Sequence record: PV637039.1
From: Escherichia phage vB_EcoS_PS2
Strand: one strand, 5' to 3'
Length of the DNA: 44,264 nt
Under the pieces are notes generated by a model that was given only the letters and a program-made list of their open reading frames with translations, was not told the DNA's origin and made no database searches. Shown piece by piece: positions 42,730-44,014 of the stretch. The translations under genes were made by a program, and so were the position numbers. Every line of letters starts with the position of its first letter. The stretch's first letter is position 1.

Positions 42730-42888
42730 ATGGCACGTAAAGATATTTGGGTATTAGCGATCTGGACCACCGCGGCTTTTATCGGCATGGTTATTTGCGA
42801 ATTGATATATCCCGCCGCCATACAGACCGTGGTATATTGTCCACGGTCCACTAATCAGGAATTAATTAAATATGCACCCGCAAACTAA
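42730..42888 (+). CDS. small membrane protein (52 aa)
   Basis: Not in the ORF track; GAGGAG RBS 9 nt before ATG; TM helix IWVLAIWTTAAFIGMVICELIY; overlaps the next gene by 17 nt. Confidence 0.3.
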   Translation: MARKDIWVLAIWTTAAFIGMVICELIYPAAIQTVVYCPRSTNQELIKYAPAN

Positions 42889-44014
42889 AATTACCGATGA
42901 GCAATTGATCGCAGAAATACAGGCCGGAACTACGGTTAAAGAGATTGCGAAGAAATACGGCATTGCACTTCGAAATGTCTACATGCGCAAAGCCCGCCTA
43001 TCGAAAAAGGGGATTGGTCACGGCAATGATGCCGTGATCCGTAAGCGCGTTGCAGATGGGTTTGGGGTTAAGCGCGTATCGGCCCTGGTACGCGGCAATG
43101 GCGAAGAGGTCATGTCGTGGGTCATCACTGAGCAGGACAAGGAGCGCCAACTCGAAGCAATGCGCGCTGTTGTCGAGGGTATGAACAGCGAAATCACACC
43201 GGCAGTGCCAGTAAACGCCCCGCCAGTACCGGTCCAGGCGCTCGACTTGCTCAACCTGTACACAGTGTCCGACTTCCATCTGGGTATGCTGGCATGGGGC
43301 GAGGAGACTGGCGAAGATTGGGATATGGCGATTGCCGAAGACCTGTTCTACCGCTGGTTTGTGGAAGCCTTCGCACGCGCACCGGACGCAGGCACTGCTG
43401 TTATCAATATCCTCGGTGATATGGCCCACTTTGATAGCCTCGACGCCGTCACACCCGCCAGCGGTCACGTACTGGATGCCGACACCCGATACCAGAAGTT
43501 GGTCCGCTATATGATTCGCATGGTGCGCAACGTGGTAGACCTGGCGCTGCAAAAACACCACAAAGTCAAACTGCTAATCGTCCAGGGTAATCATGACGAA
43601 TCGGGTATGATTTGGCTTGCTGAGATGTTCAATACCCTGTATGAGAACGAGCCGCGCGTCGATGTGGATACGTCCCCGGACGTCTACAAAATGGTGCAGC
43701 ACGGTAAGACAACTCTATTCTTCCACCACGGGCACAAAGCGCGATTCGATGCTATCGAGCAGGTTATGATCGCTAAATTCAGACAGGCGTTCGGGGCGAG
43801 CGAATACAGCTACGCGCACGTAGGCCATTTGCACCACCAGAAGATTGTTGAATCCCGCAACATGATTGTTGAACAGCACAGGACGCTCGCCGCGAAAGAC
43901 GCCTACGCCAGTCGTGGCGGTTGGATGTCCGGTCGCAGTGCCAACGTCATTACCTACAGCGCCAACTACGGCGAAGTAGCGCGCTTAACCATTAGCCCGG
44001 AAATGTTGAAATGA
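42872..44014 (+). CDS. HTH domain fused to a calcineurin-like metallophosphoesterase
   Basis: N-terminal TVKEIAKKYGIALRNVYMRKAR (HTH-like); phosphoesterase motifs VSDFHLG, ILGDMAHFD, IVQGNHDE, FFHHGH and VGHLHH in canonical order. Confidence 0.65.
   Translation: MHPQTKITDEQLIAEIQAGTTVKEIAKKYGIALRNVYMRKARLSKKGIGHGNDAVIRKRVADGFGVKRVSALVRGNGEEVMSWVITEQDKERQLEAMRAVVEGMNSEITPAVPVNAPPVPVQALDLLNLYTVSDFHLGMLAWGEETGEDWDMAIAEDLFYRWFVEAFARAPDAGTAVINILGDMAHFDSLDAVTPASGHVLDADTRYQKLVRYMIRMVRNVVDLALQKHHKVKLLIVQGNHDESGMIWLAEMFNTLYENEPRVDVDTSPDVYKMVQHGKTTLFFHHGHKARFDAIEQVMIAKFRQAFGASEYSYAHVGHLHHQKIVESRNMIVEQHRTLAAKDAYASRGGWMSGRSANVITYSANYGEVARLTISPEMLK

Follow-up and report, generated by a model that had tools for sequence, protein, structure and literature searches.

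What does a protein do that joins a helix-turn-helix (HTH) domain to a metallophosphoesterase domain, and on what substrate does it act? The question is raised by a gene at the right end of the genome of Escherichia phage vB_EcoS_PS2 (sequence record PV637039.1). The window analysed here is the whole stretch of 44,264 nucleotides (nt), which is a complete genome of a Dhillonvirus coliphage of the HK578/EP23/SSL-2009a type, and the gene in question is the following:

42872-44014, + strand: phosphoesterase coding sequence, 380 amino acids (aa), ATG to TGA, from the list of open reading frames (ORFs) and a full-length match to PHROG 704.

The ORF is a real gene, because it matches PHROG 704 ("DNA repair exonuclease", E=3.4e-161) with residues 5-380 on positions 2-390 of the 390 of the profile, and because tblastn finds the protein in 2058 phage records, 152 of them at 95-99% identity. 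Our answer, to which we assign a probability of roughly 45%, is that the product is an HTH-tethered DNA nuclease of phage DNA and nucleotide metabolism, belonging to the Mre11/SbcD/PolD-DP1 branch of the phosphoesterases.

The five motifs of the catalytic domain can be read directly from the sequence:

Motif I: D134-F-H136.
Motif II: G182-D183-M-A-H186-F-D188.
Motif III: G239-N240-H241-D242-E.
Motif IV: H285-H286-G-H288.
Motif V: G318-H319-L-H321.

In a family alignment of 67 relatives at 32-49% identity, D134, H136, G182, D183, N240, H241, H286, G318 and H321 are invariant, while H186, D188, G239, D242, H285, H288 and H319 are at least 90% conserved, so that the metal ligands are intact across the alignment. 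The first-pass annotation of this locus had listed all five motifs, and all five are present; its reading of motif II as GDxxD needs correction, as the sequence GDMAHFD corresponds to GDxxHxD, that is, to the Mre11-type GDxxH. The domain also contains conserved stretches specific to the family, namely W-x-x-E-T-x-x-D-W-D, T194-P-x-S-x-H-x-L201-D202-x-D-x-R206 and V-E-Q-H336-x-T-L-A. The Pfam metallophosphoesterase models PF00149 and PF12850 both score under their gathering thresholds (20.2 vs 21.5 and 23.6 vs 27, respectively) and match 15 and 7 of the 67 relatives at E≤0.01. Superfamily membership therefore rests on the motifs and on the predicted fold, a beta-alpha-beta-alpha-beta sandwich of the calcineurin-like type, and the sub-threshold scores indicate divergence. 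Judged by these features, the protein is a member of the calcineurin-like binuclear metallophosphoesterase superfamily and represents a divergent subfamily of it.

The AlphaFold2 model of the 380-aa protein (mean predicted local distance difference test score, pLDDT, 93.1; predicted template modelling score, pTM, 0.81) places an HTH first, followed by a low-confidence linker, a beta-hairpin/helix module, a Pro-rich linker and the metallophosphoesterase domain:

42896-43006, + strand: tri-helical HTH of the resolvase/LuxR/sigma-70 region 4 type, residues 9-45.
43061-43192, + strand: middle module, residues 64-107, a beta-hairpin (64-73, 79-88) and then a helix (90-107).
43193-43246, + strand: Pro/Ala/Val-rich linker, about residues 108-125, ITPAVPVNAPPVPVQALD, from sequence and models.
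43247-44011, + strand: binuclear metallophosphoesterase domain, residues 126-380, with motifs I-V.

The three HTH helices (residues 9-17, 22-29 and 33-45) are modelled at pLDDT 92-95, and the first 60 residues are basic, with an isoelectric point of 10.35. By sequence the HTH is weak in the PS2 protein and significant in relatives (Sigma70_r4_2 at 1.5e-9, GerE at 2.4e-8), among which the Pfam classes HTH_1, HTH_8, HTH_11, HTH_28 and HTH_30 occur as well; in structure comparison its model resembles DNA-bound resolvase and LuxR-type domains. This is the least conserved portion of the protein, and yet relatives with non-aligning N-termini still have an HTH of another Pfam class, one member having two. 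The middle module is family-specific, with conserved G77 and W83, and structure comparison gives no known fold for it. Residues 107-120 or thereabouts are without regular secondary structure in the models, and a short helix (121-125) follows in the full-length model. The protein ends at residue 380 right after the final core strands, with no capping domain. The fusion of an HTH to a calcineurin-like metallophosphoesterase, proposed in the first-pass annotation, is borne out by the modelled HTH and sandwich fold and by the motifs.

To which branch of the phosphoesterases does the catalytic domain belong? Structure comparison of the predicted fold gave the following scores:

PolD DP1 proofreading exonuclease: 15.8 (216 residues aligned).
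SbcD: 15.1.
Mre11: 15.1.
LpxH: 13.9.
MJ0936: 13.5.
YfcE: 12.9.
GpdQ: 12.5.
Rv0805: 12.2.
PPP protein phosphatases: about 9.

The ranking is suggestive of a predicted fold closest to the nuclease branch (PolD DP1, SbcD, Mre11), farther from cyclic-nucleotide phosphodiesterases and far from protein phosphatases, by a modest margin of about 2-3 Z units that comes partly from longer alignments. Family profiles compared with all PDB sequences recovered as phosphoesterase-domain chains only Thermotoga maritima Mre11/SbcD and the Pseudomonas putida MPE nuclease, at non-significant E-values of 0.7-2.6; in the alignments D-x-H-L-G and GD(F/L)LH fall on the corresponding motifs of these nucleases. The remaining PDB matches were spurious designed-repeat proteins and weak HTH hits; these profile searches found neither a solved structure of a close relative nor an orthologue among characterised phosphatases. 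NCBIfam has no informative match for the phosphoesterase, and its structural matches in BFVD are uncharacterised phage proteins, several of them automatically named "DNA polymerase II small subunit".

We favour a DNA-directed nuclease because the metal site is strictly conserved, the HTH is kept despite sequence turnover, the predicted fold resembles the nuclease branch, motif II is of the nuclease type, the gene has core status in a large group of phages and its neighbours consume deoxynucleoside monophosphates (dNMPs). Among the three functions offered in the first-pass annotation, namely an Mre11/SbcD-type nuclease targeted to DNA, a protein phosphatase and a cyclic-nucleotide phosphodiesterase, the first fits best, given the GDxxH motif, the family-wide HTH and the higher structural scores of DP1, SbcD and Mre11 over Rv0805 and the PPP phosphatases.

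How would such an enzyme work? The HTH, on its flexible linker, would tether the enzyme to duplex DNA, where the catalytic domain, dependent on Mn2+ or Mg2+, would hydrolyse phosphodiester bonds at DNA ends or nicks. Two metals would be held by D134, H136, D183, N240, H286, H319 and H321, with H241 and H186 assisting catalysis, and the enzyme, with neither Rad50/SbcC partner nor capping domain, would release 5'-dNMPs or short oligonucleotides. We infer DNA as the substrate, and breakdown or processing of DNA, most plausibly that of the host, as the role; the products would feed the adjacent salvage enzymes, that is, the dNMP kinase, the HAD PNKP-type phosphatase and the MazG-like and HD hydrolases. 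End processing in recombination-dependent replication is a possible second role.

The family to which the protein belongs is widely distributed. Identity to other Dhillonvirus proteins is 96-99%, and a search of representatives clustered at 50% identity returns 4651 proteins at E≤1e-3 and 1131 at E≤1e-30, most matches being 370-420 aa long and aligned over most of their length. PHROG 704 is found also in Jersey-, Kaguna- and Weberviruses and in many proteobacterial prophages, and the hosts of phages with a homologue include Escherichia, Klebsiella, Salmonella, Vibrio, Campylobacter, Rhizobium and Ruegeria. Bacterial genomes contributed 54 loci, many of them on megabase-scale chromosomal contigs and several with a terminase or portal gene nearby; at least these loci therefore look like prophages. 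The Rhizobium temperate phage 16-3 encodes the homologue p044. In the Drexlerviridae the gene is present in 508 of 522 members and constitutes a persistent core gene (PMC13164509).

The PS2 protein is a new member of this catalogued family, and the fusion itself is not new, having been noted publicly in the annotation of Shelanagig gp23 as "HTH-type regulator/nuclease SbcD". Other public names for the family are hypothetical protein, oxidoreductase, DNA binding protein, serine/threonine protein phosphatase and DNA repair exonuclease, and the last, which is also that of PHROG 704, is best regarded as an annotation by homology. The gene is not covered in the phage transposon sequencing (Tn-seq) preprint, in the Metis, ApeA and PUA-Cal-HAD preprints or in the daunorubicin paper.

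The genome reads from left to right as small and large terminase, head, tail and replication genes, then holins, endolysin and, at the right end, the phosphoesterase gene, in agreement with the annotated relative Bas84; in the records of related phages the genome is circularly permuted. Over the final 2.3 kb, which match 156 phage records, the nt identity to Shigella phage EP23 is 94-95%. The top nt match (94.9%), OQ221563.1, was deposited as "Acinetobacter phage NJ01", although its sequence is that of a typical Dhillonvirus-type coliphage, and the host assignment looks doubtful. An AGGA stands about 12 nt 5' of the phosphoesterase ATG, and the gene is flanked by two small ORFs:

42730-42888, + strand: possible hydrophobic ORF of 52 aa overlapping the phosphoesterase start, from the ORF list; coding status uncertain.
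44011-44223, + strand: downstream ORF of 70 aa, PHROG 20931, Dhillonvirus-specific.

At the position of the former, Bas84 has a shorter annotated ORF of 35 aa. The 52-aa ORF has no PHROG match and shows no similarity to the "superinfection immunity" gene of Jerseyviruses, of which it was considered as a homologue. The start ATG of the 70-aa ORF overlaps the phosphoesterase stop (ATGA), so that the two genes are probably translationally coupled. A downstream ORF overlapping the stop in the same way (-3 overlap) occurs in 22 of 39 lineages, and these ORFs are mutually unrelated. We rejected the 70-aa ORF as a conserved protein partner, as the small ORF that follows the gene in Jerseyviruses does not resemble it and no universal partner exists across the lineages.

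What accompanies the gene elsewhere in the family? ORFs were called in 140 loci representing 41 lineages (the phosphoesterase clustered at 70% identity), their neighbours were clustered, and recurrent clusters were annotated. Within five genes of the phosphoesterase gene the following recur:

Endolysin and other lysis genes: 10 lineages, on either side.
dNMP kinase PF21448: 8 lineages (28 loci), mostly two genes downstream.
MazG-like dATP/dGTP diphosphohydrolase PF18909: 6 lineages, position variable.
HAD_PNKP-type phosphatase (PF25109): 5 lineages (14 loci), immediately downstream.

A YfbR-like HD hydrolase, DUF1937, DUF7768 and HNH homing endonucleases are further recurrent neighbours. Genes for the latter stand beside the phosphoesterase gene in 7 lineages, mostly immediately downstream (loci L005, L013, L025, L026, L139, L143 and others), and in several phages the phosphoesterase gene itself is found in fragments of 100-260 aa (BFVD entries of JK06, Salmonella phage 36 and RDJL Phi 1). 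The repeated adjacency of HNH genes together with the fragmented copies suggests that the phosphoesterase gene is a frequent homing target. Core-gene persistence and adjacent HNH insertions fit the pattern typical of conserved DNA-metabolism genes.

If the enzyme is a DNA nuclease, could it be the one that destroys the host chromosome? Phages T1 and TLS break down the genome of their host and recycle the nucleotides, and the gene products responsible are named as unidentified, an open question (PMC11447400). Classical T1 mutants that do not degrade host DNA were described in 1981 (Roberts & Drexler; Christensen et al., both cited in PMC11447400). By gene order the TLS homologue is Gp66, which lies directly upstream of the holin Gp67 and is listed as "proof-reading exonuclease" (PMC11447400). 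In T1 the corresponding ORF directly precedes the SH3 and holin genes. Host-genome degradation that lacks an assigned gene, together with the position of Gp66, makes host-DNA degradation by the family an attractive hypothesis. In its general form, in which PHROG 704 would be the nuclease, an Mre11-like exonuclease independent of Rad50 and brought to DNA by its own HTH, that destroys the host chromosome and recycles it into deoxynucleoside triphosphates (dNTPs) in T1-like and related virulent siphophages (Drexlerviridae, Dhillonvirus, Jersey-, Kaguna- and Webervirus), we regard it as doubtful. A Dam-type methyltransferase in the same operon of T1-like phages is a candidate means of sparing phage DNA.

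Several points weigh against a DNA nuclease, or against its proposed role, in addition to the modest structural margin given above. The sequence similarity to Mre11/SbcD is not significant, and the literature yielded no biochemical or genetic work on any homologue, with mentions at the level of annotation only. The neighbouring genes fit a nucleotide-acting enzyme equally well as a DNA-acting one. A PD-(D/E)XK DUF2800 exonuclease is already encoded in the genome for recombination, as is an annealing protein of the Gp2.5 type. Host-DNA degradation is documented for T1 and TLS and is not known for Dhillonviruses, to which it would extend by analogy. The family, moreover, is common in prophages and present in temperate phage 16-3, and to our knowledge temperate phages do not generally destroy the host chromosome; this distribution weakens host-DNA degradation as a family-wide role.

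The consequences of the hypothesis are nevertheless specific. Were the protein a host-DNA nuclease, loss of the gene would put an end to host DNA breakdown, make generalised transduction more frequent and allow escape from defences that sense DNA-breakdown products (Metis, PUA-Cal-HAD, ApeA). T1 mutants with a defect in breakdown of the host chromosome are reported to be better transducers (reference 46 of PMC11447400). Such a result would bear on the transduction risk of therapy phages, on phage sensitivity to these defences and on the way in which an Mre11-type nuclease can work without Rad50; if the enzyme is merely an accessory repair or salvage nuclease, the finding would be an ordinary one. 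Few uncharacterised enzymes of enterobacterial siphophages are as widespread as this family. Many of its carriers serve as therapeutic or model phages, some of them in the BASEL collection, and the gene is a concrete candidate for the question of host-genome degradation posed for the T1 group (PMC11447400). In either case the public annotations, which range from "oxidoreductase" to "serine/threonine protein phosphatase", need correction.

The rival readings rank in the order nucleotide-pool hydrolase, transcription regulator, end-healing enzyme, cyclic-nucleotide phosphodiesterase and protein phosphatase. Could the substrate be free nucleotides? The enzyme would then hydrolyse dNTPs or the corresponding diphosphates (dNDPs) to dNMPs, Ap4A-type dinucleotides or 3'/5' nucleotides, and with the HAD phosphatase, dNMP kinase and MazG-like enzymes would reshape the dNTP pool, the HTH localising or regulating it. 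The precedent is the calcineurin-like and HAD pair that acts on dNTPs in Metis/PUA-Cal-HAD, but PADLOC-DB gives no match at E≤0.1 for the phosphoesterase or for the 70-aa downstream ORF, hence no similarity to the defence phosphoesterases. It is not obvious what a conserved DNA-binding HTH would do for an enzyme with a soluble substrate, the top structural matches are nucleases, and depletion of dNTPs would hurt a replicating phage unless it were base-specific. We consider this reading unlikely, albeit the best placed of the rivals.

Another possibility is suggested by the class of the HTH, which is that of transcription regulators. The sigma-70-region-4/LuxR-type HTH would here bind promoters of the phage, such as those that drive the lysis or late operon, and the phosphoesterase domain would modulate its action. 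The gene does border the lysis cassette in Drexlerviridae (PMC13164509) and, among the loci examined, in Dhillonvirus, a Vibrio phage and rhizobial prophages. Its surroundings in PS2 contain three elements that bear on transcription:

42641-42662, + strand: terminator-like hairpin followed by a T-run, between the ORF after the endolysin gene and the phosphoesterase unit.
42671-42709, + strand: promoter-like stretch, TTGACC (42671-42676), an 18-nt spacer and TATACG (42695-42700), read by eye and weak.
44231-44251, + strand: terminator-like hairpin followed by TTTTTTG, closing the unit ahead of the terminase genes.

The phosphoesterase gene thus appears to form a transcription unit of its own, bounded by the two hairpins. 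A simple sigma-70 consensus scan called no promoter upstream of the gene, the final base of the -10 element not being T, and we only infer that TTGACC-N18-TATACG may serve as one. Interleaved with this stretch is the 9-mer GCAACCAAT, in a degenerate copy at 42678-42686 and an exact one at 42701-42709. In the genome as a whole GCAACCAAT/ATTGGTTGC occurs in 15 copies where 0.5 would be expected:

Copies of GCAACCAAT/ATTGGTTGC: 6228-6250, 22343, 25275, 26953, 29518, 37111, 39923-40423 (six copies), 40934 and 42701.

They are often paired, 14-35 nt apart, in intergenic promoter-like stretches, as at about 37090-37130 on the - strand, where the 9-mer lies between TTGACT and TAATAT. GCAACCAAT/ATTGGTTGC has the look of an operator for a phage regulator or of a promoter element of the phage, and operator-like pairs, the one upstream of the phosphoesterase gene included, stand at promoters in PS2. 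The motif, however, abounds in the loci of Dhillonviruses, whereas Kagunavirus and Jerseyvirus loci, whose protein is about 75% identical, HTH included, have none; we therefore judged GCAACCAAT unlikely to be the target of the phosphoesterase HTH. The invariant catalytic residues indicate that catalysis is under selection, the HTH is the least conserved part, and the hol promoter of T1 is activated by another regulator, Pir/Orf23 (PMC6737242). Taken together, these considerations make a regulatory function improbable.

Two large intergenic regions, 11826-12210 and 39900-40260, have about 270 nt in common at 81-100% identity; the tape-measure operon follows the former and the late/lysis operon the latter. 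They are rich in GCGGGACA, which occurs 17 times in the genome (1.9 expected), with 8 copies in the former region and 6 in the latter. These regions may be regulatory or replication-origin-like arrays.

The HAD_PNKP gene found immediately downstream of the phosphoesterase gene in the lineages listed above points to a further alternative, in which the enzyme would be a 2',3'-cyclic phosphodiesterase or 3'-phosphatase and, with the HAD PNKP-type phosphatase and a ligase, would mend tRNA or DNA ends cut by host defence nucleases. The analogy is with T4 Pnkp/Rnl and with the calcineurin-type domain of bacterial Pnkp; Bas84 annotates both a polynucleotide kinase and a ligase, and PS2 has a HAD_PNKP gene elsewhere in its genome, at 25273-25743. 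We give little credence to such end healing. As a separate observation, genes that bear the name "polynucleotide kinase" in these siphophages encode only the PNKP-type HAD phosphatase domain (PF25109); a kinase domain is missing from them, and the public name is therefore misleading. Examples are:

L004, 1904-2470.
L007, 5166-5654.
L068, the ORF immediately downstream of the homologue.
PS2 genome, 25273-25743, - strand; here the HAD match is weak.

Still less probable is an anti-defence phosphodiesterase that destroys the cyclic (oligo)nucleotide signals of cyclic oligonucleotide-based antiphage signalling systems (CBASS), Pycsar or type III CRISPR, an option that the first-pass annotation had raised and for which the analysis found no positive support. 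Class III phosphodiesterases score below the nucleases in structure comparison, and the presence of a DNA-binding domain would lack an explanation if the substrate were small and diffusible. The gene has core rather than variable accessory status (PMC13164509) and is conserved in prophages beside housekeeping-type nucleotide genes. For viral cyclic GMP-AMP (cGAMP) phosphodiesterases, a survey preprint of 2026 lists other folds, namely 2H, poxin, DHH and HD-GYP. A Ser/Thr/Tyr protein phosphatase like lambda NinI, the third function once offered, would share the superfamily and, in some prophages, a nin-like region with genes that resemble NinB and NinG by eye, not confirmed by a family search. 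A separate lambda-type PPP phosphatase also occurs in prophages, and the structural score of about 9 lies far under the 15.1-15.8 of the nucleases; this reading has a very small probability.

Three observations concern other parts of the genome. The family A DNA polymerase ORF (29812-33000, - strand) encodes 1062 aa against 763 aa in Bas84 owing to an in-frame insert of about 370 aa; residues 487-859 match a PHROG "endonuclease" family, Pfam detects the polymerase part only, and the insert is probably an intein or an in-frame homing-endonuclease insertion. At 5080-5844 (- strand), antisense inside the head-gene region, lies an ORF matching Nmad5 (nucleotide modification associated domain 5) at E=3.5e-58, a hint that Dhillonviruses may modify DNA or nucleotides. 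Short repeats of the TCGTC/TCATC type at 33236-33460 and 36640-36790, in genes of the - strand, encode Asp/Glu-rich acidic tracts, one in the Gp2.5-like single-stranded DNA-binding protein (33226-34041) and the other in a 246-aa ORF (36395-37135).

How does the putative nuclease compare with known systems? Within PHROG 704 there is no material difference: Bas84_0067, TLS Gp66 (by gene order), Shelanagig gp23 and 16-3 p044 have the same HTH and phosphoesterase architecture. Resemblance to phage T5 A1, which acts in host DNA degradation, is limited to the proposed biological role, and A1 was rejected as a relative at an hhalign probability of 19% over 19 columns. The Calcineurin-CE effectors of Metis and PUA-Cal-HAD are, like the family, calcineurin-like phosphoesterases paired genetically with a HAD phosphatase and linked to dNMP/dNTP metabolism, but they belong to bacterial defence, have a PUA sensor domain and hydrolyse NAD+ or dNDPs, whereas the PS2 protein is phage-encoded and has an HTH in place of PUA. 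The PPP protein phosphatases of the lambda type are distinguished by GDxVDRG and GNHE motifs, which the PS2 protein lacks, as it lacks close similarity to their fold. PolD DP1 (PDB 5ihe), the archaeal 3'-5' proofreading exonuclease, has an OB-fold and a catalytic polymerase partner, whereas the PS2 protein has no OB-fold, its N-terminal model giving HTH matches only, and the polymerase of the phage is of family A, with no PolD partner. Mre11/SbcD (PDB 3qg5, 7dog, 6s6v) has a C-terminal capping domain, where the PS2 protein has instead an N-terminal HTH and the hairpin/helix module; a Rad50/SbcC ATPase, moreover, is found neither in the 44-kb genome nor in annotated Bas84 nor among the recurrent neighbours across the 140 loci. 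Lacking both a capping domain and a Rad50/SbcC-like ATPase, the PS2 protein cannot count as a canonical Mre11/SbcD. The P. putida MPE nuclease (PDB 6nvo) offers the example of a stand-alone metallophosphoesterase DNA nuclease, and its motif II, GDFLH, is that of the PHROG 704 family consensus. Relative to the characterised Mre11, SbcD and DP1, the PS2 protein is a distinct architectural variant.

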